A stretch of 64,000 nucleotides of DNA from Candidatus Bathyarchaeota archaeon BA2 (GCA_001399795.1 LIHK01000056.1:5773-69772); one strand, 5' to 3'; shown: positions 2,111 through 47,389, counted from the stretch's first letter. Program-made: numbers and translations. Notes: generated from the letters alone by a model not told the origin.

Positions 2111-2182
2111 GAAGAAGTTATGAAGGGTGAGTTGCGTAGAATTCTAAACAGGATTGGCGCCTTGAAGTTTGGAGCCTTTAGG
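2111..2182 (+). pseudogene. Orphan 5' fragment of an orotate phosphoribosyltransferase (pyrE-like) gene
   Basis: Translates as EEVMKGELRRILNRIGALKFGAF. This aligns to the N-terminus of the intact pyrE at 5396 (EEMKEELCRILTRIGALKFGVF). After that the frame runs into unrelated sequence. Confidence 0.55.
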
Positions 2183-2464
2183 TGCGCGTTTGCTATGTTG
2201 TTTGCGTTATTCCTCTCTTTCTAGACCCTATATAGCCCCCCTCTACGAGGATTCGTGTTGTTGTAGTTGTTGGCTTTTGTAGGAACTGGTCTGGGTGAGG
2301 GTTAGTTTTCAACCCATAGGCGGTGGTGTGGGTGTAGCTAGTGAGCTTTGCATGGGTGAGGCGATGTTAGACGGGTCTCCCAGCGTTGAACAGAAGAATT
2401 TCTGACAGAACTAGCGTGCTATTGCGCCTAAAAATTCCTGGCAGAGATTCTTGCGCGCGCTATA

Positions 2465-2746
2465 TTACTCATTTTTCCATCTGGAAGCCTTGTCCGCTAA
2501 CACGCATAACCACTCAAGGAATCCTTCAAAACAAACGACGGGCACGTATCGTCCTCTTTCTTCAGGCGTCAATCTATCCAACTCGACGGTCTTTCTTCTA
2601 ACAATATTCAGAGTTTGTGCTATACTTTCGAGCACCAAACATGTGTTGTAGGCTTCCTTCCTATTCCATGTCACTTCATTTTCACCAAAGGTGGTAGCGA
2701 AATGGTGAAATTTAAATATTCTGCTTAAAAAAACGTCAGCATGCAT
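2465..2746 (-). CDS. Hypothetical protein (93 aa)
   Basis: ORF only, co-directional with and about 117 bp downstream of the helicase. No motif recognised. Confidence 0.3.
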   Translation of the reverse strand: MHADVFLSRIFKFHHFATTFGENEVTWNRKEAYNTCLVLESIAQTLNIVRRKTVELDRLTPEERGRYVPVVCFEGFLEWLCVLADKASRWKNE

Positions 2747-2863
2747 TCTATGTAGAAACAGTTAGTAAATAAGTAAGAGGCAATGTGGTGAAGATAATCA
2801 AGTTGCATGCATCAGATGAATGTTGTTTATGCGCGCGCTAGGATGAAGAGAAGCATAAGGCAG

Positions 2864-5023
2864 TCACGGAGCAATTCCCAGTGATCTTTTAACCAACTCA
2901 AGAATTCTTTTTGCTTTTTCTTCACCAATACCTTGAATATACCGCACATGTATTTTTATGAAATTGGTTTCTCCTCGGTCTTTGTAAAGAGTTTTCAACA
3001 TGTCAAGGACTGTACCACTGTATCGAAGTGGTGGTTTAGCGAGCACATTCTTGCAATATTCATAAAGATTTCTAGCCGTAGTACGTCCAATTCCCTTGAG
3101 TTTAACGAACGGTACCTCCTCACTCCTAACTCCCTTTCGTATTCTGTCTCTTAGGATCTTGAACTGAGGAGGAATAATGAAGTTCTTTGCTCTTGCTAAT
3201 AACTTACATGTGAGTAAGAGCTTATCAAGTTCTCCCGCAACCTGAGGTAGTTGACTCGCGTAAACTTTAAAGTCTCTTTCAATCTGGTACTCCTCCATAT
3301 TTTCAATCCAGCCGAAGAAGACCGCGTACGCTGAATATTCTGCGTGACCGCAATCTGTGACCCCTTGAGTTTCATAGAACTCTTCTATCTGCTGCGATGT
3401 TTCCCTTGGAATCTTAGTCAATATAGCGCCCTCAAAAAGACGAGACAACGTATAAATGAGATCAAAATCGAAAGTAACTCCTCCTTCGTCGTCAAGATAT
3501 TTATTTAGTTCGAGAAACGGAGTTAGTTCATAAGGTGCAAAGGTGCTAAACAAAAATCTAAGAGTTACTTGTCCAAGATCTGTGAGTTTGTAGCCGGGAG
3601 CGCCAAGATATGACATGAAACCTGCGTCACAAAGGTATTTGACATGTCTACCCAGTATTCCGAAGAGGTCAAAGGGCATAAATGCTCTGGTTACTTTACG
3701 CGACTGAAAATTATAGAATGTTTTTTCAAAGAATCCTAATATTTGCGCATCTGTACATCGACCTGAATAAATCAACTCCAAAATTGCTTTTCTGAAATAC
3801 TCATCGCGTGCTATGTGTGAGTGTGCTTTTTCTATTTTTCCATTCAAGTATTGAGGTATTTTGCTAGTCAGCTCTTCGATACGTTTAGCGACAACATATG
3901 CATATCCTTCAGTACCGAATTGTGGTCTTCCAGCTCGCCCTGCCATTTGAATGTACATATAAACAGGAACGCTCACTCTTGACCTAGTATTAGGATCATA
4001 AAATGTTACATCGCTTAACACAACGGTTCTTGCAGGAAAGTTAATCCCGTACGCTAGTCCTGTGGTGGCAAATAAGTAATCAATTTCTCCGTTAAGAAAA
4101 AGATTTTCAACTAAAGTTCGTAGTCTTGGATCCAATCCAGAATGATGAAAAGCTACTTTCTTGCAAAGGCAATTGCAAAGGTTCTCTTCTAAATCCGTGA
4201 ACTGTTGTCGTTCTAACTCTCTTTCAAAGGCTTTAGCTATATCTTTTTTATTCGCGCTTAATTTCTGTATGAGCTGGCACATCTCGAGAGCTCGACTTTT
4301 TGTGGATTCTCGGGTAGTACAAAAAATAATATACGGATGCTGGCCTTTTTCCAAGAGAGATTCACAAAGAGCTCTGTTTTGTTGCGTGGCGTTCACTTCT
4401 GACAAATCAATGACGCCATACTTGAGGGGAACTACCCTAAGTTCTTCGGGAACTTCTATGACTTTTGCATCAAGCCATTCGCCAATCTCATTTTTGTCTT
4501 CAAAAGTGGCGGATAAGCAAATTATTCTTACATTAAGTTCTTTTAAAATTGTGATAACCTTTTCTAAATTAAACCCTCTAAGAGGGTCGTAAAGCACATG
4601 AAATTCATCAATGACGACTAGTTTGAAACCTTCGACATGGTGCCTAGCGGTTAGCGCAGTTCTATAGAAAAGCTCGAAAGTCGTGATTACGATATTAGCT
4701 GCATCCCAATCACGCGGCATGGCGTCCATTCCAACAATTTTATAGTTTTGCTTTAGATACAAAAATTCTCTTTCTTTATCAGAGATAAGGGGTTTCATGG
4801 GGACTAAGTAAGCTATTCTTCCTCCAGCTTTCAATGTTTGTAACATAACAAGTTCTGCAACACAAGTTTTTCCGGAAGCAGTAGGGGCAACAACTACAAA
4901 ATTCCTGTTGCTGTCGAGAAGCCCTTCGTTAAATGCTTTTTGCTCCGTAACGTTCAGCTTTTCCCAACCCTTTAATGTGAGTAATTCTTTAACAATCTCT
5001 TCTTTTCCTACTGCCATTACCAA
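2864..5023 (-). CDS. Ski2/Hel308-family DEAD/DEAH-box helicase
   Basis: Walker A APTASGKT, DEFH box, SAT-like LSAT, and a helicase C motif QMAGRAGR. The 719-aa length and the C-terminal helix-hairpin-helix-like end (GIGRTTARNL, IQGIGEEKAKRI) also fit. Confidence 0.8.
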   Translation of the reverse strand: MVMAVGKEEIVKELLTLKGWEKLNVTEQKAFNEGLLDSNRNFVVVAPTASGKTCVAELVMLQTLKAGGRIAYLVPMKPLISDKEREFLYLKQNYKIVGMDAMPRDWDAANIVITTFELFYRTALTARHHVEGFKLVVIDEFHVLYDPLRGFNLEKVITILKELNVRIICLSATFEDKNEIGEWLDAKVIEVPEELRVVPLKYGVIDLSEVNATQQNRALCESLLEKGQHPYIIFCTTRESTKSRALEMCQLIQKLSANKKDIAKAFERELERQQFTDLEENLCNCLCKKVAFHHSGLDPRLRTLVENLFLNGEIDYLFATTGLAYGINFPARTVVLSDVTFYDPNTRSRVSVPVYMYIQMAGRAGRPQFGTEGYAYVVAKRIEELTSKIPQYLNGKIEKAHSHIARDEYFRKAILELIYSGRCTDAQILGFFEKTFYNFQSRKVTRAFMPFDLFGILGRHVKYLCDAGFMSYLGAPGYKLTDLGQVTLRFLFSTFAPYELTPFLELNKYLDDEGGVTFDFDLIYTLSRLFEGAILTKIPRETSQQIEEFYETQGVTDCGHAEYSAYAVFFGWIENMEEYQIERDFKVYASQLPQVAGELDKLLLTCKLLARAKNFIIPPQFKILRDRIRKGVRSEEVPFVKLKGIGRTTARNLYEYCKNVLAKPPLRYSGTVLDMLKTLYKDRGETNFIKIHVRYIQGIGEEKAKRILELVKRSLGIAP

Positions 5024-5128
5024 GCCCTAGACCAGCTCGTAGCAAGTGTAACGCGCTAGATTTTTAAATACTTTTCAATGTATAAAAATGGGTTTAATAT
5101 TTCTGACAATTATGAGATTGTTAGAGAC

Positions 5129-5320
5129 ATGGAGATTGTCGAGAAATGCGTAAACTATGCCGAGTCGATATTGAAAGAAGTGGAGAAGTTTTTAAGAAAA
5201 TAGACGACTACGTAGCTGAGGCGCGCGAGCGCGCGCGAAATTCTGAATAAATACGGAAGCGAAAAGGGCGCCTTGAGGAAAGCCTTAGAAGAGGCGATCA
5301 GGGAGTTGAAGGACACCTAG
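5129..5320 (+). pseudogene. Small all-helical protein gene disrupted by two compensating indels
   Basis: MEIVEKCVNYAESILKEVEKFLRK stops at TAG 5201. The -1 frame continues KIDDYVAEARERAR, then the original frame resumes EILNKYGSEKGALRKALEEAIRELKDT*. The frame switches lie in an A4 run and a (GC)n run. Confidence 0.3.
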
Positions 5321-5395
5321 CGATATCCATAAGAACTTACTGATTGATACTACTAAGCGCGCGTGCTGTCACGCTCAAGAATGGTGGCTTAAACG

Positions 5396-6013
5396 ATGAG
5401 CCGAGAAGAAATGAAAGAAGAACTGTGCCGGATACTTACAAGAATCGGGGCACTCAAATTCGGGGTCTTCACCCTAACATCCGGTAAGGTAAGCCCCTAC
5501 TACATCGACCTAAGAATCGTTCCAAGCTTTCCAGACGCCTTCCAAAGAATCTGCGAACTCTACGTCGAACTAATAAAAAGCGAAGTCGGAGCCAACAACT
5601 TCGACAGAATCGCGGGAATCCCCACTGCTGGCATACCCTTCGCATCCCTCACCGCTTACCACCTCAAAAAACCCTTCCTTTACATTCGCCCGCGCGAGCG
5701 ACTACATGGACGAGAAAGACGGGTGGAAGGCATAGTGATGCCAGGCGACCGTGTCTTGTTGATGGACGACCTTATAACCAGCGGAGGTTCTCTAAAAAGG
5801 GCTGCGACGGCCATCAGAACTGAAGGCGGTGTGGTAACGGACGCTGTAATACTGTTAGACAGAGAAGAGGGCGGGAAAGAAAATTTGGCGAAGGACGATG
5901 TTAAACTCCATTATTTGTTGAGGACAAGCGAGGCCGCTGAAAAACTCTATGAGATAGGCGCCATCACAGAAGATCAATTGAAAATCATTCTGAAACAGGT
6001 GAAAAAGAAATAA
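5396..6013 (+). CDS. pyrE: Orotate phosphoribosyltransferase
   Basis: 205 aa. PRPP-binding motif VLLMDDLITSGGS and an N-terminal FKFG/LTSGK pattern. Confidence 0.9.
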   Translation: MSREEMKEELCRILTRIGALKFGVFTLTSGKVSPYYIDLRIVPSFPDAFQRICELYVELIKSEVGANNFDRIAGIPTAGIPFASLTAYHLKKPFLYIRPRERLHGRERRVEGIVMPGDRVLLMDDLITSGGSLKRAATAIRTEGGVVTDAVILLDREEGGKENLAKDDVKLHYLLRTSEAAEKLYEIGAITEDQLKIILKQVKKK

Positions 6014-6197
6014 CCTACCTCATAAAGGTCAAGTCTAATCAAGGATGTCGACAGTTTTCTTCTGAGGCTTCAGCCCCTTGTTGGGGACGTACATGAGGGT
6101 GAGCTGAGATAGAATTTTTGTCTGAATCTAAAGTCTAGATCATTGATTCATCATTCATAAAAGTCAGATGTGAACGTACCCCGTATAGGGCACCGCT

Positions 6198-6377: not shown

Positions 6378-6448
6378 CTGAAGTCTGGGTTGGATTAAGA
6401 ACAAGATAAAACAAAAATGAGAGATATCACGGGTCTTTTGAATGATGC

Positions 6449-7009
6449 CTATTCGTAATATATCAGCTCTTCGTCCTCAAGTTTTTGATGGAGCTTGCTG
6501 ACCGCTTCGTAAACGTCTCCCTCACGTTTAGCACCTGTGCAAACCAGTTTTCCGCTTGCAAAGAGAAGAATTACAACCTTTGGTTCATCCATTCTGTAGA
6601 TGAGACCTGGAAATTGTTCTGGTTCATACATGGTTCTCCCGAGGGAGTAGGCTGACTTTTCAAGGTCTATCATTCCTCCCAGATCTGCTGAGGCCACGAT
6701 GTTTTGTATCTTCAGCTCGGGTTTGCCGATGATTATTATTCCGCCCTTCTTAAGTTCCTTTATAACTTTCATCACGGCTCTCCTCGCTTCTTTCTCAGAC
6801 TTGGCTCCTGTGCAAACCATCTTTCCCGAATTGAAAATGAGGGTTGCTGTTTTAGGTCTCTTCAACCTGAAAACTAGGCCGGGAAACTGTTCTGGGCGAT
6901 ACTCCACGCCGGGATAACCTTTCACAACCGCGTTTAGGTCAACATTTTGATTTAGTGTTGCAGATGCAACCACGTTTTCGATATTAATCTGCGCCTTAAC
7001 TTTAGGCAT
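6449..7009 (-). CDS. tbp: TATA-box binding protein
   Basis: 186 aa with two direct repeats (IENVVAS...FPGLVFRL...SGKMVCTGAKS and IQNIVAS...FPGLIYRM...SGKLVCTGAKR). Confidence 0.95.
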   Translation of the reverse strand: MPKVKAQINIENVVASATLNQNVDLNAVVKGYPGVEYRPEQFPGLVFRLKRPKTATLIFNSGKMVCTGAKSEKEARRAVMKVIKELKKGGIIIIGKPELKIQNIVASADLGGMIDLEKSAYSLGRTMYEPEQFPGLIYRMDEPKVVILLFASGKLVCTGAKREGDVYEAVSKLHQKLEDEELIYYE

Positions 7010-9214: not shown

Positions 9215-12094
9215 TTGTCAGATCTTCCCAAGAACGCCTTCGATATGCTCGTTAAACCGATTCGTAGACTGGTTGAGCAGAAAGGCTTTGAAGCACCAAC
9301 CGAGCCCCAGGAGAAAACCATACCAAAAATCCTTGAGGGAAAGAATGTTCTCCTTATATCGCCTACCGCCACTGGGAAAACTGAGGCGGCTGTTCTCCCG
9401 GTTCTCAGCATGCTCATTCAAACGCTTGAAAGACCGCGTGGAATCAAAATTCTCTATGTGACGCCTCTTAGGGCTTTGAACCGAGACTTACTTGAGCGTC
9501 TCGAATGGTGGTGCAACAACCTAGACGTTAAGCTGGCGGTTAGGCATGGCGACACCGACACTGAGGAGCGGACTAGACAGGCTCAAAGCCCTCCAGACAT
9601 GTTGATCACCACGCCGGAAACCTTGCAGGCCATTCTGCCCGGTAGGCTCATGCGTCAGCACCTTCAGCAGGTAAGATGGGTGATCGTCGACGAAGTTCAT
9701 GAAATGGCGGACAGCAAGCGGGGAAGCCAGTTGTCCTTGGCTCTTGAAAGGCTCAGATGGGTCACGGGCAGAGAATTTCAACTCATCGGCTTGTCGGCAA
9801 CTATTGGAAGTCCGGAGAGGGTTGCTCAGTTTCTCGTCGGTAACGGGCGTGAAGTCGAGATCGTGAAGGTGCCCGTCGCGCGGCTCATGAGGTTAAAGAT
9901 TCTTTTTCCGCAACCGGAATCAGGTGACTACGAGTTAGCTTCAACCTTGTTTACCCATCCTGAGGTCGCCGCCCGCCTTCGCATAATTCGCCGGTTCATT
10001 GAAGAGCACAAATCTGTTCTTCTTTTCACAAACACGCGAGCCATATCAGAGGTTTTGGCCAGCCGATTCAAAGTTTGGGACGTGGACTTCCCTGTTTCCA
10101 TCCATCACGGCTCCCTGGCTAAGCCTTCTAGAATCGCGGCTGAACGGGGACTGAAGAACGGCGATTTGAAGGGGCTTGTTGCCACATCTTCGTTGGAGTT
10201 GGGCATAGACGTTGGACGGATTGACATGGTGATTCAGTATATGAGTCCGAGGCAGGTTACACGTCTCATTCAACGTGTGGGTCGGAGTGGTCACAGAGTT
10301 GGACGCATCGCAGAGGGGCTCATCATCACTATGGATTCTGATGATACGCTGGAGGCCATGTCTATCGGTCGCATGGCTGGCGAAGAGGATTTGGAGCCTG
10401 TGGATGTACCATATAAGCCGTACGATGCCTTGGCTCATCAGATCATTGGCCTCTTGATGAAGAAGAAGCGTTGGTATTTCTACGAGATTTACGACCTCTT
10501 TAGGAAGGCCTATCCATACGCTGACCTTACAGTGGAAGACGTTCAGAAAGTTTTGGATTACATGCACCATCGGTTTCCTAGGTTGGCGTGGGTTTCCTTT
10601 GAGGATATGCTTGCCATTAAGCCGCGTCAAACCAAGGCTATGTACGAGTATTATTTCGAGAATCTTTCCATGATTCCCGACGAAAAGAAATTCTTGGTTG
10701 TAGAAGAAAGTAAAGATTCTGCTGTGGGTGTTCTAGACGAGGCTTTTGTTGCCGAGTACGGTAAGCCTGGCGTGAAATTCATTATTCGTGGTAGCCCTTG
10801 GAAAATTTTGAACGTTTATGGTGACCAAATTTACGTGAAGCAGGTTAACGATCCAACTGGGGCCATTCCGAGCTGGGTTGGAGAAGAGATTCCCGTTCCC
10901 TTCGATGTGTCTCAGGAGGTTGGTTGGATCAGAGGTTTTGTTGAGGAACAGGTAAAGAATGGAAGGGAGCCTTTTGAAGTTGCTAGTCAGTTGGCCGAGA
11001 AGTATCCTGCTGACAGAGATACGGTTATGCGGGCGATTCATGAGACGGTTGAGCAAGTCAGGAAAGGTTATCCTGTTCCTACGGGTAAGCGGATACTGAT
11101 CGAGGATTGGGAGGACTTCGTCATTATTCACGCCCATTTCGGGTCCCTCACGAATCGGGCTTTGGCTCAGTTAATTGGTCACGTTTTGTCTGAGCAGACC
11201 GGATACAGCGTTATGGTTCAACACGATCCGTATCGCATTTTCGTTTATACGATGAGTGCCGCCAATGCTGATCGTATTATGGGATTGTTTGATGAGATGA
11301 AGCGGATGGATGACTTGGACATTCGTGACATGCTTACCAAGGCGACCGTGAAGACCGGCATTTTCAAGAGGCGGATGGTTCACGTTGCCCGCAGGTTTGG
11401 AGCCCTAAAAAAGTGGGTTGACCTGAGCAGAATTAGTCTTCAGAAGTTGATGAAGAGTTTTGAGGATACAGCCATCTACGATGAGGCTTTGAAGGAGACT
11501 TTCACCAAGGACCTAGATTTGGAGCACATGACCTGCGTGCTGAACGATGTTAAGAAGGGCGAAATTGAAGTCACTAAACTTGAAACTGAAGGCGTTGCGA
11601 CTCCAGTTGCGCGTGTTGGAATAGAAAGGGTTAGCATGAAAACTGACCTCATTCCACCTGAGAGGATGAAGCTTATTCTGGTGGAGTCGACTAAGGCGCG
11701 CCTCCTCAACGAGGTTCGCACCTTTGTTTGCACCGATTGCTGGGAATATCTGGAAATGATTCGGATTAAAGATTTACCTGAGATGCCAGCTTGTCCTAGA
11801 TGTGGGTCCTCAAGCTTGGGCGTGCTTGGGATGGAGGAAGATGCTATTCGGTCTTTGGTTGACAAGAGGGGTGAGAAGCTAACCACAAGCGAGGAGAAAA
11901 TGAAGAAGGGAGCTTTAAAAACGGCTAGGTTGATGTCTGGGTACGGCAAGCCAGCTGCTGTGGCCCTTTCTGGAAGAAAGCTTAGGGTTTCTGACGTGGA
12001 GGAAATTCTTAGAGAGGAGAAGACGCTTTCAGACAGGTTTTTTGAGTTGGTGATAGAGGCTGAAAGAAACGCCCTAAAAAGAAGATTCTGGTAG
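9215..12094 (+). CDS. lhr: Lhr-type large ATP-dependent helicase
   Basis: 959 aa. Walker A SPTATGKT, DEVH box, SAT, a helicase C motif QRVGRSGH, and a long C-terminal Lhr-like extension with a CxxC...CPRC zinc ribbon. TTG start at 9215; ATG alternative at 9245. Confidence 0.9.
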   Translation: MSDLPKNAFDMLVKPIRRLVEQKGFEAPTEPQEKTIPKILEGKNVLLISPTATGKTEAAVLPVLSMLIQTLERPRGIKILYVTPLRALNRDLLERLEWWCNNLDVKLAVRHGDTDTEERTRQAQSPPDMLITTPETLQAILPGRLMRQHLQQVRWVIVDEVHEMADSKRGSQLSLALERLRWVTGREFQLIGLSATIGSPERVAQFLVGNGREVEIVKVPVARLMRLKILFPQPESGDYELASTLFTHPEVAARLRIIRRFIEEHKSVLLFTNTRAISEVLASRFKVWDVDFPVSIHHGSLAKPSRIAAERGLKNGDLKGLVATSSLELGIDVGRIDMVIQYMSPRQVTRLIQRVGRSGHRVGRIAEGLIITMDSDDTLEAMSIGRMAGEEDLEPVDVPYKPYDALAHQIIGLLMKKKRWYFYEIYDLFRKAYPYADLTVEDVQKVLDYMHHRFPRLAWVSFEDMLAIKPRQTKAMYEYYFENLSMIPDEKKFLVVEESKDSAVGVLDEAFVAEYGKPGVKFIIRGSPWKILNVYGDQIYVKQVNDPTGAIPSWVGEEIPVPFDVSQEVGWIRGFVEEQVKNGREPFEVASQLAEKYPADRDTVMRAIHETVEQVRKGYPVPTGKRILIEDWEDFVIIHAHFGSLTNRALAQLIGHVLSEQTGYSVMVQHDPYRIFVYTMSAANADRIMGLFDEMKRMDDLDIRDMLTKATVKTGIFKRRMVHVARRFGALKKWVDLSRISLQKLMKSFEDTAIYDEALKETFTKDLDLEHMTCVLNDVKKGEIEVTKLETEGVATPVARVGIERVSMKTDLIPPERMKLILVESTKARLLNEVRTFVCTDCWEYLEMIRIKDLPEMPACPRCGSSSLGVLGMEEDAIRSLVDKRGEKLTTSEEKMKKGALKTARLMSGYGKPAAVALSGRKLRVSDVEEILREEKTLSDRFFELVIEAERNALKRRFW
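12044..12093 (+). repeat. Direct repeat copy 1 (lhr 3' end)
   Basis: 48 of 50 nt identical to 12763-12812. Encodes ELVIEAERNALKRRFW. Confidence 0.95.
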
Positions 12095-12206
12095 GTGTCT
12101 ATTTCTAGAACCTAATTTTTGCCGAGTTAAAATTAGGCTTCAGGGAAAATTTAATGAACGTAAGTGTAAGCAATTGCGATTGATTGCGGAAGATGGAGTG
12201 GCTTAG

Positions 12207-12527
12207 ATGAAAACTTTCATGGAAGAAATCATGAGGGCTTATAGGAAGAAAGTGCTTTTTACGCGTCATGCGTTGAATCAGATGAACTTGTCTGAGAGAA
12301 TGATTTCGAGGCTGGAGGTTTATGAGGCATTGGAGAGTGATGAGATTGTGGAAGATTATCCAGATGATCCTCGGGGGCACAGTTGTTTGCTTATGGGCAA
12401 AACTCGTGATGGAAGGGTTATTCATGTGGTTTGTGCACCCAAGGAGGATTATTTGGCGATAATAACGATTTATTCGCCAACTTTATTAGAGTGGGAACCA
12501 GACTTTAAAACGCGTAGAAGAGAGTGA
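12207..12527 (+). CDS. DUF4258-family toxin-like protein
   Basis: 106 aa. The F/TRHALNQM...EDYPDDPRG...LL...VVCA pattern is typical of DUF4258. A 4-nt overlap with the downstream zinc-finger gene also fits a toxin-antitoxin pair. Confidence 0.7.
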   Translation: MKTFMEEIMRAYRKKVLFTRHALNQMNLSERMISRLEVYEALESDEIVEDYPDDPRGHSCLLMGKTRDGRVIHVVCAPKEDYLAIITIYSPTLLEWEPDFKTRRRE

Positions 12528-12760
12528 GGCTCATGGAATGTTATTATTGTAAGGGCGCTATGGTTAGGGGAAAAACAACTTATACGATGAATGGGCGGGG
12601 GTATCATCTTCTTATCGATGAAGTTCCGGCTTGGATATGTCAGCAGTGTGGCGAGGTTTATTTTGAAGGAGAGGAAGTCGACATAATCCAAGACTTGATT
12701 AAGACGATTGATTCAAAACTCGCCAAAGCTCAATTGGCTAAACCAAAACCTCCAACGTAG
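12524..12760 (+). CDS. YgiT/MqsA-type zinc-finger antitoxin-like protein
   Basis: CYYCKG...CQQCGEVYF zinc-finger pattern. It overlaps the upstream toxin-like gene. Confidence 0.7.
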   Translation: MRLMECYYCKGAMVRGKTTYTMNGRGYHLLIDEVPAWICQQCGEVYFEGEEVDIIQDLIKTIDSKLAKAQLAKPKPPT

Positions 12761-12762
12761 AT

Positions 12763-12812
12763 GAGCTGGTCATAGAGGCTGAAAGAAACGCCCTAAAAAG
12801 AAGATTCTGGTA
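12763..12812 (+). repeat. Direct repeat copy 2 (displaced lhr 3' end remnant)
   Basis: Same 16 codons as the lhr C-terminus plus a TAA stop. It starts 2 nt after the antitoxin stop codon. Confidence 0.95.
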
Positions 12813-13036
12813 AGTTTACGCTGAAAAGGCAACTTTAGGGCTCGGATTTTCCTCACATGTGCTTGTAGAACGATTTATGATCGGAAATGTGTTGGGAATG
12901 TTGAAAACATTGTTGAAAAATTATGGAGGGGCCCTAGATAGAGAAAGAGATAGTTATTTAGAATTCATAAAAGTATAAAAGGAAGAGAAAGTGACTTAGT
13001 AGTCCCCTACTGTTAGACCCTCTGGAGAAGAACAAT

Positions 13037-13372
13037 TTGGAATTAACCCGCCAAAGAATACGGGAACAGGCCCTCCAAAGATTCAAACATACACGAACCT
13101 GCGTCCTAGCCAGAGAACTATGCCTCCTCATCCGCACAAACAGAGTAGCCCTCAACCCAAAAGACGTAGCCGACTGTTGCTCCTTCATATCAACCATATG
13201 CAAAGAAGCTGGCTGCACGGAACCAAGCGAAATATGCCAAAAAGCTGCAGAAGCAGTCCTAACAAGCGAAGAGCGATACTTGGACCTCTGCATGCAAAGC
13301 TGCCAGAAATGCGGAGAATCCAGAAGACCCGCCGCAAGACAAATTCGAGAAAGAACAACCTATGTAGCCTAA
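13037..13372 (+). CDS. Hypothetical Cys-rich protein
   Basis: ORF with spaced Cys pairs (CCSFISTICKEAGC...CQKA...CMQSCQKCG). Only a TTG start is available, and there are competing ORFs in other frames. Confidence 0.3.
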   Translation: MELTRQRIREQALQRFKHTRTCVLARELCLLIRTNRVALNPKDVADCCSFISTICKEAGCTEPSEICQKAAEAVLTSEERYLDLCMQSCQKCGESRRPAARQIRERTTYVA

Positions 13373-13435
13373 CAACCGCGAAAACCATAAAAGCAGAAGG
13401 CATGTAATAAAGACAAAAAGCGAGGAGGACTAAAC

Positions 13436-13909
13436 TTGTTTATAGCACCATACGTCGCCTCACCCATGCCGGTAGTACGTCGAATGCTCACCCTCGCCGA
13501 ACTTAAACCCGGAGAAACCTTCTACGACTTAGGCTCAGGAGACGGTAGGGCAGTAATAATGGCTGCCCAAGACTTTGGAGCCAATGCTGTAGGGATCGAG
13601 TTGAGGGAAGACCTAGCGAAAAGAGCCCTCAACAGCATTGATGAACTCGGCATCGAGAGAAGGGTGCAAATTCTTCAAAACGACATATTCAAGGTTGACT
13701 TAACCACCGCAGATGTCGTCTTCCTGTACCTCACAACAAGCGCAAACGAGAAAATCAAGCCAAAACTGGAGTCTGAGCTTAAACCAGGAACCCGAATCGT
13801 TTCCCACGACTATGAAATTCTCGGGTGGAAACCATCTAAAATCGACAATTTCTGTGAAAACCCTAAGCTAGGCTACCCATCCCACACACTCTACGTCTAC
13901 AAAAGGTAA
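13436..13909 (+). CDS. Class I SAM-dependent methyltransferase
   Basis: Motif I FYDLGSGDGRAV, an acidic residue after beta-2 (GIELRE), and DVVFLYL. Confidence 0.8.
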   Translation: MFIAPYVASPMPVVRRMLTLAELKPGETFYDLGSGDGRAVIMAAQDFGANAVGIELREDLAKRALNSIDELGIERRVQILQNDIFKVDLTTADVVFLYLTTSANEKIKPKLESELKPGTRIVSHDYEILGWKPSKIDNFCENPKLGYPSHTLYVYKR

Positions 13910-14038
13910 CGTCTTCGTTCCAACGCTAAGTGATTCTAAACTTTCCGCAACATCACCTAGACTACAATTTATAAGATAGACCCTTTCTTGAATATTCTGA
14001 ACCTGCAAGACCAGCAGTTCATCGCTGGCGGATGAGAA

Positions 14039-20493: not shown

Positions 20494-20580
20494 CGCTGAG
20501 GTTTTGTCAGGTTGACAAGATAACTCTTTCTAAGCCCCTCATCACCATTTTTAGTGCAATTGCGTTTTTGGAAAAAATAC

Positions 20581-20617
20581 TGTTTTCAACATTCTTCTGT
20601 TATTAGGATCCAAATAG
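20581..20617 (+). repeat. 37-bp perfect repeat, copy 1
   Basis: TGTTTTCAACATTCTTCTGTTATTAGGATCCAAATAG is identical at 41622-41658. Weaker similarity extends about 25 nt upstream. Confidence 0.9.
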
Positions 20618-26344: not shown

Positions 26345-26372
26345 GCTTGGATGAGAGGCGTGGAAAGGAGGA

Positions 26373-32523: not shown

Positions 32524-33012
32524 ATTCGAACACCCAGTTGACTGCTAGCATAAAAGAACGAAATAACTTTTGTTAACATGCAGATATATTGTTGGCTGTC
32601 AAAATAAGCCTCTTTTCCTTTTTTCTTCAAGAAATGCTTTTAAATGGTATAGGTTAGCCATACAAACACAGCCTTAATCATTAACACTCTTAACTTAAAC
32701 GTGCACTCAGGTGAGAAACATCGAGCCCAGCGAAAATGCGACAGTTGTAGCATATTAATCTTCATTGAGTGGCTTATCCATGGGCAAGCGCTACTTCTTC
32801 AAGGCTAGCTGCGAGCTTTAAATGTTTTCAGGTCTTCCCGAGGAGCTGCTCATCTTTTGGACTTGCTCAAAGGGCTCCGGTCAACGCTTTTCATTCTGCG
32901 ATCTTAAAGCTGAACAGGGGTTCCTCAGGTCTTCAGATTTGAATTTTGCGCAGATTCGGACTCGGATTTAGACTAAATTATAAATATTCATATTTATATA
33001 TAAAATTAAAAT

Positions 33013-33375
33013 ATGACTAAACAAGATTATATTCAACGCGGTGGACGCAGTTTGGAATCCGAAGTCCTAAAGAAAATGCACAGAAGAATGGTCAAAAGCT
33101 TCATGGACATCCTTATCCTCGCAGAGTTGAGAAACAACCCCCTGAGCGGCTACGATGTTATCGCCCACATCCACAACAAATTCGGCATACTGGTTAGCTC
33201 GGGAACCGTTTACTCCCTCCTGTACTCTTTGGAAAGAGACAATTTGATAAGAGGCATCTGGGCCAAAAGAAAAAGAGTTTACGAGCTAACCGAAAAAGGT
33301 GAACGAGACATCGAAGCCATTCTAAACGCAAATGACCAAATTAAAAGCTTGATGACAACCCTCCTGACAGGCTGA
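33013..33375 (+). CDS. PadR-family transcriptional regulator
   Basis: ILILAELRNNPLSGYDV...SSGTVYSLLYSLERDNLI...KRKRVYELTEKG. Confidence 0.8.
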   Translation: MTKQDYIQRGGRSLESEVLKKMHRRMVKSFMDILILAELRNNPLSGYDVIAHIHNKFGILVSSGTVYSLLYSLERDNLIRGIWAKRKRVYELTEKGERDIEAILNANDQIKSLMTTLLTG

Positions 33376-34638: not shown

Positions 34639-34644
34639 GAATCC

Positions 34645-35127: not shown

Positions 35128-35346
35128 AATACTGTGGGAAGAAGGGGCTCGCTTGAACTGAACCGAGTCGACCACTTAAATTGCTAAGCTTATGCGCACA
35201 CGCGCTTTGGGACTCCGAGTTCTGCGAGTCTCTTCTCCCCACAGACGGTCGGGCCATAAAAACATGTCTCTCTCAATAAATAATGGGAGAAGATACACAA
35301 AAACCTTGTTGTACACCCCCTAAAGAGACGCAACTGCGGTGGACCG

Positions 35347-35472
35347 CTGTAGATAGACCCCTCTAGTTTTCTTTATATACTGTCAACATTGAAACTGGGC
35401 GATGTGGTGCAGATGCTTCTTTGTGTGTCGAGGCTATGTAGCCCCCTCTGTTTATAGTTCCAACATTGAAAC
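35347..35472 (+). repeat. Two tandem units of a dispersed intergenic repeat family
   Basis: CTGTAGATAGACCCCTCTAGTTTTCTTTATATACTGTCAACATTGAAAC is followed about 77 nt later by CTATGTAGCCCCCTCTGTTTATAGTTCCAACATTGAAAC. Related copies lie at 48468-48610, 41449-41509 (minus strand) and, more weakly, at 2230-2330 and 43870-43925. Confidence 0.8.
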
Positions 35473-35495
35473 CGCGGATTGGGGCAGTCTCCAAC

Positions 35496-36356: not shown

Positions 36357-36422
36357 CCTTACCGCACGTCCTTCCTTAAGACATTATTCTATTTAACTAA
36401 TTATTATATGCACCCAAGAACA

Positions 36423-37083: not shown

Positions 37084-37087
37084 CAAT

Positions 37088-38005
37088 TCAAAAGCTCTTG
37101 TGGGCTAAACCCACAATCTCCTTCACATTCCCAAAACCCTTCTTCTTAACATAAGCGTCAATTCCCCTAGCCACAGACTTGAAGACTCCAAGCCCCTTAA
37201 AAGCAATTGCTGTTCCAATCTGAACCGCTGAAGCCCCAGCCAACATAAACTCCGCAGCATCTCGCCAAGTAGTTATTCCCCCACAGCCGATAACCGGAAC
37301 ATCAACCTCACGGTAAACCTCATACACGCACCTTACGGCAATGGGCTTTATAGCAGGACCAGACAACCCGCCAATCCTGTTCGCCAAAAGAGGCCTAGCG
37401 GTTTCAATTTCGATGGCCATAGCCCTAACCGTGTTAATAGCTACTATGGCATCCGCACCCGCTTCAACAGCAGCCCTAGCTATTTCAGCAATGTTAGCAA
37501 CGTTTGGAGTCAACTTCACGAAAACCGGCTTGCCCACCTTCTTCTTAACTTCCCTCACAACTTCCGCCACCAAATCCAGATCGCTTCCAATCTCTGCTCC
37601 CATTTCTTCAACATGGGGACAAGACACGTTCAATTCTAAGGCGTCTGCTCCCGCCCCAGCCGCAACCTTAGCCACTTCAGCAAAGTCTCCAGATGAAAAA
37701 CCGTAGACGCTTACAATAATTGGAACCCCAGCCTCCTTTGCTTCTCTTATCTCCTCACCAAAATGATGAATGCCAGGGTTTGGAAGCCCGATGGCGTTGA
37801 GTAAGCCGCATTCAACCTGAACCACGGTTGGGTTGGGATAGCCTTCCCGCGGTTTTAGCCCCACCGACTTCGTAACAACGGCGCCAGCGCCAGCCTCAAC
37901 TACGCTTCTTAAGGATGACCCAGTCAACCCGAGAATCCCAGCGGCGAGCATCGTGGGATTGGCAAGCTTTAGTCCAGCTATTTCTGTAACGAGTCGCCCC
38001 GACAC
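37088..38005 (-). CDS. pyrD: Dihydroorotate dehydrogenase catalytic subunit (class 1B)
   Basis: 305 aa. NPTMLAAG, ELNVSCPH, TPNV, NTV, GGLSGP and GCGGI motifs. Confidence 0.9.
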   Translation of the reverse strand: MSGRLVTEIAGLKLANPTMLAAGILGLTGSSLRSVVEAGAGAVVTKSVGLKPREGYPNPTVVQVECGLLNAIGLPNPGIHHFGEEIREAKEAGVPIIVSVYGFSSGDFAEVAKVAAGAGADALELNVSCPHVEEMGAEIGSDLDLVAEVVREVKKKVGKPVFVKLTPNVANIAEIARAAVEAGADAIVAINTVRAMAIEIETARPLLANRIGGLSGPAIKPIAVRCVYEVYREVDVPVIGCGGITTWRDAAEFMLAGASAVQIGTAIAFKGLGVFKSVARGIDAYVKKKGFGNVKEIVGLAHKSF

Positions 38006-38088
38006 CTAGGGGACACCTCTTGTTGCAGTAAATGTTATCCACTAGCAAGATAAATGTTAAGAGGAAACACTGAGATGGAGGAAGCTGG

Positions 38089-39306
38089 GTGAAAGCAACT
38101 ATCGTAGAATGCGTGATGGGTGTTCTCAGCTTCGGAGAAGCCAACGAACTTCTCGACAAAGTTTTCTTCCCAAAGAATCCGCTGGAAATAGCGGAAAGGC
38201 TTGGAAAAATAGAAGCCGGAAAGGTTATTGAAGAAATAGCTACTTTGATTGAAAAACTGCAAGAAAAGGGTTACACAACCTTTGTTTTTGAAAGTTTGGA
38301 GATGGCTCGAAACGCCCGCGAAAAGCTAAACATTGAAGTAGATGTAGAGAGGCCCTCGGAGGCTGGTGAGCTGCTTCGTGGAAACCTTGAAAATTTTGCT
38401 GTTGACTTGGGGTTCGTAAAGCGGGCGGATCAGCTTCATGAATGGATTCACAATGTTTCTATGGAACTCGCTAAGGTAAGGGTGATGAGGGCTGTTGAAA
38501 AGCGAGATTTGTTGGTGGTTCAGGCTATTCAAACCATTGACGACTTGGACAAGACGCTGAATCTTTTCATGAGCAGGGTCCGCGAGTGGTATGGACTCCA
38601 CTTTCCAGAACTAGATCGTCTGATAGACAAACACGAAACATACGCGCGCCTTATCCTTAACTTTGGAAAAAGGGACAATTTTACTGTAGAAAACCTAGAG
38701 AAAGAGGGGTTACCGAAAGCTAAAACCGAACAGATAGCCGAAGCCGCCAAAGCTTCGATGGGAGCTGAACTCAGCGAAGAAGACATAAACCAAATGCAAG
38801 CCATGTGCAGAAACACGCTCGGGCTCTACGATGCGCGGCAGTCGCTGGAAAAGTATGTTGACACGATGATGAACGAGGTTGCGCCCAACACCCGTGCCTT
38901 GGTTGGTTCCCTTCTTGGAGCTAGACTCATAGCGCTTGCAGGTGGATTAAACAATCTAGCTAAGTTGCCAGCGAGCACACTTCAGGTTTTGGGTGCTGAA
39001 AAAGCCCTGTTTAGGTCGCTCAGGACAGGGGCTCGCCCCCCCAAGCATGGAATAATTTTTCAGCATTCCCTTATTCACGAAGCGAAACGGTGGCAGAGGG
39101 GGAAGGTTGCTCGGGCTTTGGCTGGAAAGTTGGCTATAGCCGCTCGAATCGACGCCTTCAGCGGCAAGTACGTGGGAGACAAGTTGACGGCTGGTCTCGA
39201 GAAAAGAATTGAGGAAGTCAAAGAAAAGTATGGGGAGCCTCCTCCTCCCAAGAAGCTTCCAGTCCAGAAGCGTCCTAGGAGAATGAAACGTGGCCGTAGA
39301 CGTTAA
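38089..39306 (+). CDS. nop5: C/D box RNP protein Nop5 (Nop56/58)
   Basis: NOSIC/Nop domain (REWYGLHFPEL...AEKALFR...PKHGIIFQH) and a K/R-rich tail. Directly upstream of fibrillarin and overlapping it. Confidence 0.9.
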   Translation: MKATIVECVMGVLSFGEANELLDKVFFPKNPLEIAERLGKIEAGKVIEEIATLIEKLQEKGYTTFVFESLEMARNAREKLNIEVDVERPSEAGELLRGNLENFAVDLGFVKRADQLHEWIHNVSMELAKVRVMRAVEKRDLLVVQAIQTIDDLDKTLNLFMSRVREWYGLHFPELDRLIDKHETYARLILNFGKRDNFTVENLEKEGLPKAKTEQIAEAAKASMGAELSEEDINQMQAMCRNTLGLYDARQSLEKYVDTMMNEVAPNTRALVGSLLGARLIALAGGLNNLAKLPASTLQVLGAEKALFRSLRTGARPPKHGIIFQHSLIHEAKRWQRGKVARALAGKLAIAARIDAFSGKYVGDKLTAGLEKRIEEVKEKYGEPPPPKKLPVQKRPRRMKRGRRR

Positions 39307-39988
39307 GCCGCACCCACGGTTTCCAGGAGTTTACTGGGCTTCTTTAGAGGATGGTTCCAGAAGACTAGCCACAGCAAACCTTATTCCAGGGAAGAGTGTT
39401 TACGGTGAGCGACTGGTCAGGTTTAGGGGTGAAGAATACAGGCTTTGGGACCCTTATAGGAGCAAGTTTGCTGCTTCCATTTTGAAGAGTCTGGAAGCTG
39501 TTCCTATCCAACCTAACCATAAAGTTTTGTACTTGGGAGCCGCTTCTGGAACAACGGCGAGTCACGTTTCTGACATTGTCGGGGAGAAGGGTCATGTCTA
39601 TTGCGTAGAATTTGCTGCTCGCGTCATCAGAGAGTTGGTTAACAACGTTTGTGCCTTTCGCTCTAACATGTCGCCTGTATTGGCGGATGCACGTCTGCCG
39701 GAGCGTTACTCGACGCTGGTGGGGAAGGTGGACGACGTTTACTGTGATATAGCTCAGCCTGAGCAGGCTAGGGTTTTGGCGGACAATGCTGATTTGTTTC
39801 TTGTGGATGGTGGTTGGGTTATGTTGGCGGTTAAGGCTCAGAGCATAGATGTTACGAGGGAGCCCTCTGAAATATATGAACAAGAGATAAACATTATGAA
39901 GGTCCGTGGGTTTCGTGTCAGCGAGGTTGTTCACCTGGAACCTTATGATAAGGCGCACGCCATGATTGTGGCAAAGAAAGAAACTTAA
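39290..39988 (+). CDS. flpA: Fibrillarin (rRNA/tRNA 2'-O-methyltransferase)
   Basis: YRLWDPYRSKFAA, VLYLGAASGTTASHVSDIV, and DIAQPEQA. Confidence 0.95.
   Translation: MAVDVKPHPRFPGVYWASLEDGSRRLATANLIPGKSVYGERLVRFRGEEYRLWDPYRSKFAASILKSLEAVPIQPNHKVLYLGAASGTTASHVSDIVGEKGHVYCVEFAARVIRELVNNVCAFRSNMSPVLADARLPERYSTLVGKVDDVYCDIAQPEQARVLADNADLFLVDGGWVMLAVKAQSIDVTREPSEIYEQEINIMKVRGFRVSEVVHLEPYDKAHAMIVAKKET
39806..39983 (+). repeat. Direct repeat copy 1 (fibrillarin 3' end, 178 bp)
   Basis: Identical to 40599-40777 apart from one extra G in copy 2. Checked base by base. Confidence 0.95.
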
Positions 39989-40033
39989 AAAGGAAGAAAC
40001 ATGCTTCTCTTATTTATCAAGTAAGGTGATCAA

Positions 40034-40240
40034 ATGAGCGTAACGGTCAGCAAAACTCAGTTGAAACAGGTGCTAGATAAATTGGACTCGGTGAGACTCG
40101 AACTTTTGAGGCTCAGAGCAACACTTCTTCCTCAAGAAGAGCCAAGCAAAGAGGATGCAAAAAAACTTGAAGAGGCCCGAAAAGAAATAGCAAAAGGCGT
40201 GAGCATAAACCTCGAGGACCTAATCAAAGAGTTAGGCTGA
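40034..40240 (+). CDS. Antitoxin-like small protein (partner of RelE)
   Basis: 68 aa, helical, located 8 nt upstream of the RelE-like gene. Confidence 0.55.
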   Translation: MSVTVSKTQLKQVLDKLDSVRLELLRLRATLLPQEEPSKEDAKKLEEARKEIAKGVSINLEDLIKELG

Positions 40241-40247
40241 CCCAACG

Positions 40248-40511
40248 TTGTTTCAGGTTATTCTTTCTCAGAAAGCCAGAAAATCTATCAAAAAACTCCC
40301 TAAATATTACAAGCGAAGAATCATAGAGTTACTTTTAATTTTTCGTGAGAATCCTGTTCCAGCTGAATACTACGATATAAAGAAGCTTAAGGGATATCTT
40401 GATGCATACAGAGCAAGAATAGGGGATGTCCGAGTTATCTACGAAATTCTCTGGGATGAGAAAAAAGTTAATGTACTGCTAATCGAGCCAAGAGAAAGAG
40501 CCTACCTCTAA
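40248..40511 (+). CDS. relE: RelE/ParE-family toxin
   Basis: KKLPKYYKRRI...YRARIGDVRVIYEILWDEKKVNVLLIEPRERAY, the typical RelE/StbE layout. Confidence 0.75.
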   Translation: MFQVILSQKARKSIKKLPKYYKRRIIELLLIFRENPVPAEYYDIKKLKGYLDAYRARIGDVRVIYEILWDEKKVNVLLIEPRERAYL

Positions 40512-40598
40512 AACTATTCAGTGCGTAACGTGATTGTAGAGCTTAGAAAATATAGGATAAGAAGACTCTAAACAGTAGCCTGTTTAATCAATTCTTTT

Positions 40599-40777
40599 AG
40601 ATGGTGGTTGGGTTATGTTGGCGGTTAAGGCTCAGAGCATAGATGTTACGAGGGAGCCCTCTGAAATATATGAACAAGAGATAAACATTATGAAGGTCCG
40701 TGGGTTTCGTGTCAGCGAGGTTGTTCACCTGGAACCTTATGATAAGGCGCACGCCATGATTGTGGCAAAGAAAGAAA
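40599..40777 (+). repeat. Direct repeat copy 2 (displaced fibrillarin 3' end, 179 bp)
   Basis: Same as 39806-39983 with GG changed to GGG at about 40619-40621. The end diverges (..KKENI* versus ..KKET*). Confidence 0.95.
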
Positions 40778-47387: not shown

Positions 47388-47389
47388 GG

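Follow-up and report, generated by a model that had tools for sequence, protein, structure and literature searches.

Acinetobacter plasmids carry pdif modules, small promoter-plus-gene units that often encode a toxin-antitoxin (TA) pair, have no recombinase of their own, and are stacked. Such modules share a common site, pdif, as integron cassettes share attC. Integrons are also known from archaea (PMC9668308). Other elements enter at gene ends. The prophage e14 (and phage 21) integrates within the 3' part of a housekeeping gene, icd of E. coli; e14 brings a replacement 3' end whose differences are mostly conservative, and the native end is left on the far side as a pseudogene, icdC (PMC13626634). 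Cis-mobilizable elements (CIMEs), which derive from ICEs or IMEs, are att-flanked, lie at a gene 3' end (for example, fda of Streptococcus thermophilus), have lost their integration genes, and form tandem arrays via accretion (PMC5704250). In Thaumarchaeota and Crenarchaeota, iMGEs with a tyrosine integrase target tRNA genes, intergenic DNA, and the 3'-distal parts of protein genes. Element sequence replaces the stop codon, and re-use of a site leads to arrays; the att sites have a median of 17 bp in Thaumarchaeota and measure 29-69 bp in Crenarchaeota. These archaeal iMGEs encode an integrase, and TA-only minicassettes are not reported among them (PMC6563490).

We analysed a window of 64,000 nucleotides from Candidatus Bathyarchaeota archaeon BA2, in which the original prediction had placed three insertions, each at a gene end that is regenerated while a copy is displaced (Table 1). 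Comparison of occupied and empty sites bears this out, since relatives with an empty site exist for all three junctions. Like e14 at icd, the inserts supply a new gene end and displace the native one. Unlike e14, a 15-kb prophage with an integrase, the units here are 0.7 kb, with a TA pair only and no recombinase. As with integrase-type elements, direct repeats flank the insert and one of them overlaps the 3' end of the target gene, but no integrase gene lies inside the lhr and flpA cassettes. Given e14/icd, CIMEs, and the thaumarchaeal elements, the gene-end logic is therefore not unprecedented, and the claim that no described system matches survives in a narrower form: it is the TA-only, recombinase-less, many-target minicassette that appears to be undescribed.

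Table 1. Features at the pyrE, lhr, and flpA junctions (window coordinates).
Feature	Position	Strand	Remarks
Metallo-beta-lactamase-fold (MBL) gene	1337-2086	+	Pfam Lactamase_B_2; immediate left neighbour of pyrE in relatives
Displaced pyrE 5' fragment	2111-2182	+	'type A' N-terminus, ~24 codons; cut at GGAGCCTTTAGG/TGCGCG
Inserted block between MBL gene and pyrE	2183-5395		G+C 0.41 vs 0.46-0.49
93-aa ORF of unknown function, cargo	2465-2746	-	no Pfam match
Ski2/Hel308-like helicase, 719 aa, cargo	2864-5023	-	Pfam DEAD, Helicase_C, HHH
Intact pyrE, chimeric	5396-6013	+	first ~110 nt 'type B', rest like type-A relatives
lhr (large helicase-related) gene	9215-12094	+	Pfam DEAD, WH_Lhr, DEAD_assoc
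lhr 3'-end repeat copy 1	12043-12096	+	exact core 12053-12093
TA minicassette 1	12097-12761	+	DUF4258 toxin and MqsA-like antitoxin; G+C 0.415
Promoter-like GGGAAAATTTAATGA box of minicassette 1	~12145-12160		
DUF4258 toxin	12207-12527	+	PF14076, E 4e-24
MqsA-like zinc-ribbon antitoxin	12524-12760	+	PF15731, E 4e-6, below its curated cutoff
Displaced native lhr 3' end	12762-12815	+	right side colinear with native downstream DNA
flpA (fibrillarin)	39290-39988	+	Pfam Fibrillarin, E 4e-96; last codon and stop (T*) cassette-derived
flpA 3'-end repeat copy 1	39798-39983	+	exact core 39806-39983
TA minicassette 2	39984-40591	+	promoter region, antitoxin, ParE/RelE toxin; G+C 0.386
68-aa ORF, antitoxin of minicassette 2	40034-40240	+	partner of ParE/RelE toxin
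ParE/RelE toxin of minicassette 2	40248-40511	+	PF05016, E 1e-8
Displaced native flpA 3' end	40592-40785	+	ends KKENI*; runs on into native downstream sequence

At flpA, the two copies of the 3' end (39798-39983 and 40592-40777) are 186 nt long and 99% identical, with an exact core of 178 nt (39806-39983 and 40600-40777); the intact gene ends in KKET* and the displaced copy in KKENI*. In L005-L007 the site is empty, flpA being followed directly by the sequence found after copy 2 in the window, and window 40592-40822 aligns with L005 6509-6732 at 83%. In the alignment, L005 and L006 have the host state at the variant positions. Copy 2 has a non-host T and A at its left edge, and copy 1 has the non-host tail T*. 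A polymorphism in L002 at the edge of copy 2 suggests that gene conversion may still be ongoing. The insertion shared with L085 could be vertical, since the cassette (92% identity) has diverged about as much as the flanking core genes (88-90%). Among 80 species-level loci, none has another element at the flpA site.

The lhr copies (12043-12096 and 12762-12815; 54 nt, 94% identity, exact core of 41 nt) differ by two synonymous changes and by TAG versus TAA. Minicassette 1 is absent from the relatives L180 and L181. In L180, lhr is followed directly by the post-copy-2 sequence with no TA genes, and L180 1093-2334 aligns with window 12762-14000 at 89%. The host state, TGAGTTGGTG...TAA, is the same in L180, and comparison with this relative indicates that the lhr stop TAG and all sequence beyond it are cassette-derived. 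Copy 1 has its non-host TAG on the right edge, and copy 2 has a non-host C and C on the left edge (first 10 nt); thus, both variant-bearing edges face the cassette. Such a partition of variants between the copies directly supports the proposal that the cassettes carry along pieces of conserved genes as arms. The toxins fit their family profiles and have a small adjacent partner gene in conserved order, and the two payloads can be classed as putative type II TA pairs, ParE/RelE with an upstream antitoxin and DUF4258 with an MqsA-like antitoxin.

Chance would not be expected to produce exact repeats of 178 and 41 nt within 64 kb, and related Bathyarchaeia loci totalling about 800 kb have only three dispersed repeats of at least 35 bp. 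The duplications might be suspected to be assembly artefacts, an outcome once named as a possible refutation, since the genome is a MAG whose 178-nt repeat is longer than short-read k-mers and interrupts contigs (L002). However, three assemblies of the sample agree, the same structure being present in the two others (L001-L004), the two copies are not identical at the edges, and homologous structures are found in independent, unrelated samples, including on a 2.2-Mb contig. We regard an artefact as extremely improbable.

The payloads, TA ORFs or a helicase tract, have no recombinase, as first proposed. A tblastn search with three integrases, together with a motif scan, found no integrase-like ORF in the window, and gene annotation of 2.3-21.7 kb and 35.5-49.8 kb yielded no integrase. 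TA cassettes 1 and 2 contain two small TA ORFs each and no recombinase. Unlike transposons and casposons, the cassettes have no terminal inverted repeats (repeat search) and no short fixed-length target-site duplication; the repeats found are 41-178 nt, with partitioned variants. In being small, often TA-encoding, probably served by an enzyme encoded elsewhere, and arrayed, they resemble integron cassettes and pdif modules. However, they are flanked by fragments of the upstream host gene instead of a common site, with no attC at their ends, and the window contains no integrase. Neither a circular form nor an attP junction was seen.

The third junction shares this logic only in part. The fragment at 2111-2182 reads EEVMKGELRRILNRIGALKFGAFR and the intact pyrE (5396-6013) reads REEMKEELCRILTRIGALKFGVFT (tblastn E 1e-4). 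The differences fall mostly at third positions, as had been noted (4, 4, and 18 by codon position; 15 synonymous and 5 non-synonymous codons). LarA, the MBL gene, and pyrE lie side by side in L175, L176/L177, and L178, and the site is empty in L175 and L176, where the MBL gene and pyrE are neighbours. L178, a distant lineage, has the same junction with an insert of only about 260 bp. The insert ends at 2206-2250 and 5362-5394 are common to this short insert, and the interior of the block would be secondary cargo; its helicase matches Hjm (2zj2), Hel308 (2va8/2p6r), and Brr2/ASCC3 in the PDB. Chimerism of pyrE was measured in 60-column alignment windows against L175 and L178. In the first two, identity is 83-90% with L178 and 44-72% with L175; in later ones it is mostly 85-95% with L175 (range 70-95%) and 68-85% with L178, consistent with the idea that the first ~110 nt of the intact gene arrived with the insert. 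The event looks one-sided because the fragment ends at codon 24 and the replaced stretch reaches about codon 30-35. The claim of a single logic thus stands for lhr and flpA. The pyrE junction is an older event of another kind with a like outcome: an insertion, apparently by one-sided homology, would have regenerated the 5' end and displaced the native one, and the helicase cargo would have been gained later.

Beyond the window the theme recurs in the test that had been proposed: homologous TA cassettes lie behind various host genes, and in each case the arm matches the gene. Metagenomes contain at least 312 related ParE genes. Proximal direct repeats are present at 17 of 55 evaluable ParE-cassette loci versus 7 of 500 control windows, a flanking repeat is not detectable in about two thirds of the related cassettes, and the antitoxin-toxin pair is kept in nearly all of 80 related loci. 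For the DUF4258 cassettes, four of five other contexts are repeat-flanked, and at some (L168, L171) the repeats are intergenic. The arms include 3' ends of flpA (L085-L087), of a hexapeptide-repeat sugar nucleotidyltransferase-like gene (at least eight loci), of a gene labelled by a peptide near its C-terminus (LDYLYP...), of tRNA-Ile and tRNA-Phe, and others; all identified arms are 3' ends in the same orientation as the cassette. The units fall into discrete lengths of about 0.7-1.2 kb, and tandem arrays occur at some loci (L113, L117, and L161). Start-to-start spacings are 1159, 1159, 1159, and 1139 bp; 794 and 782 bp; and 763, 763, and 753 bp. Cassette-arm junctions are conserved between loci and across hosts. 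No recombination site or motif is common to different arms, the cassette ends being mutually unrelated and abutting host-gene fragments. Differences in the L142 arm number 33, 23, and 65 by codon position, and this dominance of third positions, like that in pyrE, indicates that the arms derive from diverged functional alleles. Together, the recurrence points to what may be an abundant miniature mobile element without its own recombinase.

One family with many different arms, the co-oriented 3' ends, and the lack of a shared recombination site would also fit a dedicated trans-acting system that inserts at gene termini and reads its target from the carried arm (homology-programmed integration). 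Such a system is improbable: no candidate gene is associated with the cassettes, and ordinary recombination or integrases can yield all of the observations. The variable repeat lengths and the intergenic repeats could instead reflect long target-site duplications, from staggered cuts or replicative template switching at insertion. Arms that can be 76% diverged functional alleles with a third-position bias speak against this explanation, as do junctions conserved across hosts. Moreover, because the non-host variants at lhr and flpA are confined to the cassette-facing edges, they argue for a Campbell-type crossover rather than a target-site duplication, which we consider very unlikely.

The tRNA-arm relatives have additional features. 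Their repeats begin in the T-loop, a conserved att-like motif of about 35 nt abuts each tRNA fragment whatever the cargo, and tyrosine integrases of one family adjoin the sites in L141 and L147, and also in IMG/VR proviral contigs beside tRNA-Ser. This integrase family and the motif accompany only the tRNA-arm relatives; the motif is absent from the flpA and lhr cassettes. A possible reading, though one that we hold short of probable, is that all of the cassettes, those at flpA and lhr included, are CIME-like derivatives of integrase-type integrated elements. A tyrosine-integrase element with a replacement gene end, as e14 at icd, would have been deleted down to its TA pair, which could not be lost, and the att-flanked remnant would be immobile or moved in trans by a related integrase. 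The architecture is known for integrase-borne elements (PMC13626634), thaumarchaeal elements lie in 3'-distal protein-gene parts, including that of a GlmU-like gene (PMC6563490), and bacterial CIMEs with tandem accretion are described (PMC5704250). Like CIMEs, the cassettes retain flanking repeats (attL/attR) and have no integration or transfer genes. The tRNA-arm motif with its nearby integrases, the arrays, and the 41-54 bp lhr repeat, which is within archaeal att sizes, add to this. However, CIMEs are bacterial, usually decayed elements of several kb that share their site with a recognisable autonomous ICE, whereas no autonomous partner was found for lhr, at flpA (80 species-level loci), in the nucleotidyltransferase-arm arrays, or in IMG/VR. 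A single TA family with many arms would require independent reduction at eight or more targets, yet the unit lengths and junctions are discrete and conserved; the flpA and lhr cassettes have no motif, and the window has no integrase.

The reading that we prefer, with confidence about evenly balanced, is that these are miniature non-autonomous integrative TA cassettes that enter by a Campbell-type crossover and draw their recombination functions from outside. A unit of 0.7-1.2 kb would comprise a promoter, antitoxin, toxin, and arm, the arm being a copy of the final 50-450 bp of a host gene or the terminal 24-30 nt of a tRNA. The data show entry by a single reciprocal crossover in which the arm recombines with the end of the chromosomal gene: the cassette comes to lie directly behind the gene, the right part of the arm rebuilds the gene end, and the native end, 5'-truncated, remains beyond the cassette. 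TA addiction (post-segregational killing) would then penalise cassette loss. For the long flpA and lhr arms we favour host homologous recombination with a copy of the unit that is circular or has repeats at its ends, and for the tRNA-arm relatives a tyrosine integrase acting in trans. Homologous recombination at protein-gene arms is favoured by arm lengths of 41-~450 bp, no shared motif, and no integrase; the absence of other elements at the flpA site and the L002 edge polymorphism also suggest it. At 41 nt, the lhr core is a short substrate for homologous recombination, and its length lies in the range of crenarchaeal att sites, 29-69 bp (PMC6563490). A model of recombination alone leaves the acquisition of new arms by one TA family without explanation. 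A bolder version, which we consider doubtful, has TA minicircles for which the carried arm alone is enough to home to essential-gene and tRNA ends, and which would lack a recombinase of their own and perhaps need none whatsoever. This would be a homology-programmed selfish cassette that host recombination inserts, TA addiction locks in, and new arms retarget.

Such cassettes would explain the spread and stacking of TA genes in uncultured archaea, such as Bathyarchaeia, where no transposase or integrase is visible, with hotspots at the ends of flpA, lhr, the nucleotidyltransferase-like gene, and tRNAs. They would also account for a class of 'gene 3'-fragment' pseudogenes and of genes with chimeric ends in MAGs, and for assembly breaks at cassette loci. 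Should integrases act in trans, these would be the first counterparts of bacterial CIMEs in archaea; should the arm be enough to direct insertion, archaeal tools for site-directed integration would have a natural template in the units. Finally, if the homology-programmed reading is true, such cassettes would be a major route of TA and defence-gene flux in Bathyarchaeia.

The 3' ends of two genes in the window, flpA (fibrillarin) and lhr, are present twice, and in each case the two copies bracket a toxin-antitoxin (TA) pair (see table). A third payload lies between a displaced 5' fragment of pyrE and the intact gene. As originally predicted, this fragment matches the pyrE N-terminus as protein; its differences number 4, 4, and 18 at codon positions 1, 2, and 3, respectively. 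The G+C content of the three payloads (0.39-0.42) is lower than that of host genes (~0.49). The predicted absence of a recombinase from the payloads is also borne out: the cassettes are too small to encode one, and neither tblastn with three integrases nor a motif scan detected an integrase in the window. No tRNA gene or Rfam match was found in the window as a hidden target. A fourth possible gene-end fragment, a nop5-like match at 49.2 kb, was rejected as chance similarity within a 450-aa gene.

Coordinates of features in the window
Feature	Position	Description
lhr 3'-end repeat	12043-12096 and 12762-12815	54 nt, 94% identical, exact core 41 nt (repeat finder)
lhr cassette	12097-12761	DUF4258 toxin and MqsA-like zinc-ribbon antitoxin
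flpA 3'-end repeat	39798-39983 and 40592-40777	186 nt, 99% identical, exact core 178 nt (repeat finder)
flpA cassette	39984-40591	68-aa ORF (antitoxin) and ParE/RelE toxin
Displaced pyrE fragment	2111-2182	followed by 93-aa ORF and 719-aa Ski2/Hel308-like helicase
Intact pyrE	5396-6013
Helicase-pyrE gap	5100-5320	short reading frames (e.g. ...ALRKALEEAIRELKDT*) flanked by GCGCGC runs
Extra DNA beyond flpA	40822-41467	includes 81-aa ORF (41020-41265, minus strand), no Pfam match
~85-nt non-coding element	20535-20617 and 41574-41658	83-91% identical, core TTTTCAACATTCTTCTGTTATTAGGATCCAAATAG, no Rfam match
TATA-box/C-G-run motif family	35345-35379 vs 41477-41511 (inverted); 2222-2250; 12925-12945
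Polyprenyl-synthase-like genes	45473-47435	two adjacent local paralogues, 52% identical over 135 aa
PadR-like regulators	33010-33372; 47393-47773; 47912-48358	29-39% identical, two divergently paired
Asp/Gly-rich repeats	62541-62696	two 66-nt repeats, 90 bp apart, 74% identical, encoding DxDGDGDVD motifs; probably calcium-binding (dockerin- or thrombospondin-like) repeats of a surface protein

An assembly artefact is ruled out, since the same structure is present in other assemblies of the sample and homologous structures occur elsewhere. The ParE and DUF4258 toxins of the window are identical, residue for residue, in MAG GCA_002509245.1 and in an ENA assembly from the same hydrocarbon metagenome, on contigs that are 99-100% identical to the window. 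Within lhr, 67 nt at window 10951-11018 correspond to 186 nt in the NCBI MAG contig (L003 8626-8812), where the lhr call is consequently reduced to a 293-aa fragment; the discrepancy stems from assembly or scaffolding and is not biological.

Relatives retain the sites without the cassettes. A fibrillarin scan of species-representative genomes gave matches exclusively in Bathyarchaeia, the closest being 87% identical. The flpA gene of the closest species has the terminus KKEKT* and continues into ...ACTAATAGAATTTTGGAAGAAACA, the sequence that follows copy 2 (the displaced native end, right of the cassette) in the window; window 40592-40822 aligns with positions 6509-6732 of the related locus L005 at 83% identity. 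No second flpA 3' copy is present in any of the 80 related flpA loci. In L180, whose Lhr is 88% identical, lhr runs directly into the DNA found after copy 2 (L180 1093-2334 aligns with window 12762-14000 at 89%), and the lhr TA pair is present in neither L180 nor the compared locus L181. The lhr empty-site junction would read GGTTTTTTGAGTTGGTGATAGAGG...TTCTGGTAAGTTTACGCTG, and the predicted circle junction of the cassette CCAACGTAGATGAGCTGGTCATAGAGG...TTCTGGTAGGTGTCTATTTC. At the pyrE site, LarA, a metallo-beta-lactamase-fold gene (MBL), and pyrE are directly adjacent, with no insert, in L175 and L176/L177.

The region beyond flpA has other differences. About 540 bp between the flpA downstream flank and conserved elements are absent from L005, possibly because the window gained a further small insertion here. 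The counterpart of window 42484-47472 in the complete genome bin28 (L011 1-3439) sits upstream of pyrD-nop5-flpA rather than after flpA, which makes the stretch downstream of flpA a breakpoint of rearrangement among Bathyarchaeia.

The edges of the repeats bear on how the two TA cassettes were inserted. In the host state (L180), the lhr repeat is bounded by TGAGTTGGTG at the left and TAA-GTTTAC at the right. In the window, copy 1 (the rebuilt gene end, left of the cassette) has a host left edge and a foreign right edge (TAG-GTGTCT), and copy 2 has a foreign left edge (TGAGCTGGTC) and a host right edge. Similarly, flpA copy 1 ends with a foreign T*, and copy 2 begins TTCTTTTAGATGG where the host has TTCTTGTGGATGG and retains the native NI* tail and flank. 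Judged from these sequences, the pattern is the one that a single reciprocal crossover within the identical core, a Campbell-type insertion, would produce: the incoming DNA would carry a version of the gene end that differs slightly from the host's (an "arm"), and one exchange in the core would insert the cassette. The pattern speaks against target-site duplication, in which both copies would begin as host sequence, and against an illegitimate join on the right. Target-site duplication and template switching are rejected because non-host variants are confined to the cassette-facing edges and because arms can be diverged functional alleles; at one related locus, L142, the repeat copies are only 76% identical, with 33, 23, and 65 differences at codon positions 1, 2, and 3. 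A one-sided homologous event with an illegitimate join was considered as a general route for TA cassettes. At lhr and flpA, homologous-but-different arm bases at the left edge of copy 2 lead to its rejection; for pyrE it is retained. In a second assembly of the same sample (L002 577-590), the left edge of the displaced flpA copy has host-type G and G where the window (40592-40604) has T and A. This difference reflects either polymorphism in the population or gene conversion involving both copies, and the host variant at this edge suggests continuing exchange between them.

The original prediction placed the pyrE junction under the same logic as the other two. It shares their outcome, but its history differs. 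PyrE N-termini fall into two types; the displaced fragment belongs to type A, as do the closest PyrE bodies, and the intact gene starts with type B. The first ~110 nt of the window pyrE are 83-90% identical to L178, from a distant lineage, and 44-72% to L175, while the remainder for the most part resembles L175 (70-95% per alignment window, in most of them 85-95%) more than L178 (68-85%). The displaced type-A fragment and its junction (GGAGCCTTTAGG followed by YGCGCG) are shared by L178, where the insert is only ~260 bp and has ends that match window 2206-2250 and 5362-5394. Thus, the pyrE insertion is old and has moved between lineages, and the helicase and 93-aa ORF are later cargo. Since the fragment ends at codon 24 and type-B sequence extends to ~codon 30-35, pyrE would be better explained by homology on one side and an illegitimate join on the left than by a reciprocal crossover. 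The short frames in the helicase-pyrE gap resemble vestiges of small genes within the pyrE-linked insert.

The TA cassettes recur in metagenomes. A scan with the ParE toxin yielded at least 312 relatives, the best 80 of which are 71-93% identical. On viral contigs, the ParE and DUF4258 cassettes had distant matches at most, or none, and no circular contig was found. Nearly all of the best ParE loci keep the upstream antitoxin and a conserved archaeal promoter box that begins right after the upstream gene. Direct repeats of at least 24 bp bracket the TA pair in 17 of the 55 evaluable loci, those with 250 bp or more on each side, compared with 7 of 500 control windows. These repeats are the 3' ends of differing upstream genes, all co-oriented with the cassette. 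Thus, the payload recurs, as proposed, behind different host genes, each with a matching arm: flpA (L085, and by displaced fragments L086 and L087); a hexapeptide-repeat (LbH), sugar nucleotidyltransferase-like gene (L133, L139, L142, L149, L153, L161, and others); a gene with the peptide LDYLYP... near its C-terminus (L117, L135); and tRNA-Ile (L136, L137) and tRNA-Phe (L113), with further arms besides. Start-to-start spacings are discrete (1159, 1159, 1159, and 1139 bp for the nucleotidyltransferase type; 794 and 782 bp for flpA; 763, 763, and 753 bp for tRNA-Ile), and cassette-arm junctions are conserved across loci with different host fragments. No terminal motif common to all cassettes was found; the promoter box alone is conserved. 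The flpA cassette may have spread horizontally or vertically: among flpA cassettes, toxins are 91-97% identical and the displaced fragments, which are pseudogenes, 80-90%; core genes of the window and L085 are 88-90% identical. Close homologues of the lhr payload (75-89% identical) occur in four other distinct contexts, and in three of these they, too, lie between repeats (58, 105, and 160 bp).

Cassettes also accumulate. At L117, L146, L153, and L161 the gene end is repeated three or four times, and in L113 (contig Ga0105163_1003725, 1430-6242) a tRNA-Phe gene is followed by at least three cassettes, each of which terminates in a G-rich motif of ~35 nt and a 3' fragment of a tRNA. Judged from the translations, the cargo genes are ParE, a DUF4258-like/DUF2283-like pair, and PadR plus HepT/MNT. 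In the unit ending at ~5040, the 3' end comes from another tRNA, which suggests that units move between tRNA sites.

Two sets of evidence address what makes the crossover. In tRNA-arm cassettes, the repeat begins in the T-loop, and the G-rich motif, which is confined to these cassettes, adjoins every tRNA fragment regardless of cargo; in L141 it also marks where a 5.7-kb element ends on the far side. Of 150 large ORFs near ParE cassettes, 3 are tyrosine recombinases of a single family (L135, L141, L147), which also occurs beside tRNA-Ser at the ends of proviral contigs in IMG/VR. All of this is consistent with a classical att site on which an integrase acts in trans. The G-rich motif is missing from the flpA and lhr cassettes, whose arms are long and mutually unrelated. 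No other integrated element was found at flpA among 80 species, and no flpA fragment on IMG/VR viral contigs. The host variant at the copy-2 edge in L002 likewise points to homologous recombination. Given these two sets, we lean towards host homologous recombination for both window cassettes and an integrase for their tRNA-arm relatives. An integrase-only origin, like that of CIMEs (bacterial att-flanked derivatives without integration genes; PMC5704250), is a strong rival, and insertion may also be recombinase-independent.

Two non-coding features were also observed. Elements similar to the ~85-nt one lie just downstream of flpA in L005, L006, L020, and L044; possible identities are a conserved gene for a small RNA and a regulatory site. 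The second is a motif family consisting of a TATA-like box (TATATAAAG or TATATGATCCAAATA), a C/G run (TAGACCCC or GGGGTCTA), and then GCGCGC or GTGCGCAC. It is often close to cassette junctions, is also present in L091, L094, L102, L108, L123, and L154, and might act as a strong promoter or represent a small type of repeat.

The claim that no described system has this combination stands in part. Replacement of a gene end with displacement of the native end is known. Prophage-like e14 integrates at the 3' end of icd with an element-borne replacement end (PMC13626634), and thaumarchaeal integrated elements likewise use gene 3' ends with a replacement end; their sites are tRNA genes, intergenic DNA, and 3'-distal parts of protein genes, and they form arrays (PMC6563490). 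CIMEs also belong among the known cases. An ANME-1 paper notes TA insertions and deletions, with no mechanism given (PMC13385816). In the literature searched, no description was found of TA-only cassettes with gene-end arms, a family whose 0.7-1.2-kb members encode no recombinase, carry arms from many different gene ends, and are abundant in an archaeal lineage. The gene-end cassette theme is real, and it is more general than could be seen from the window.
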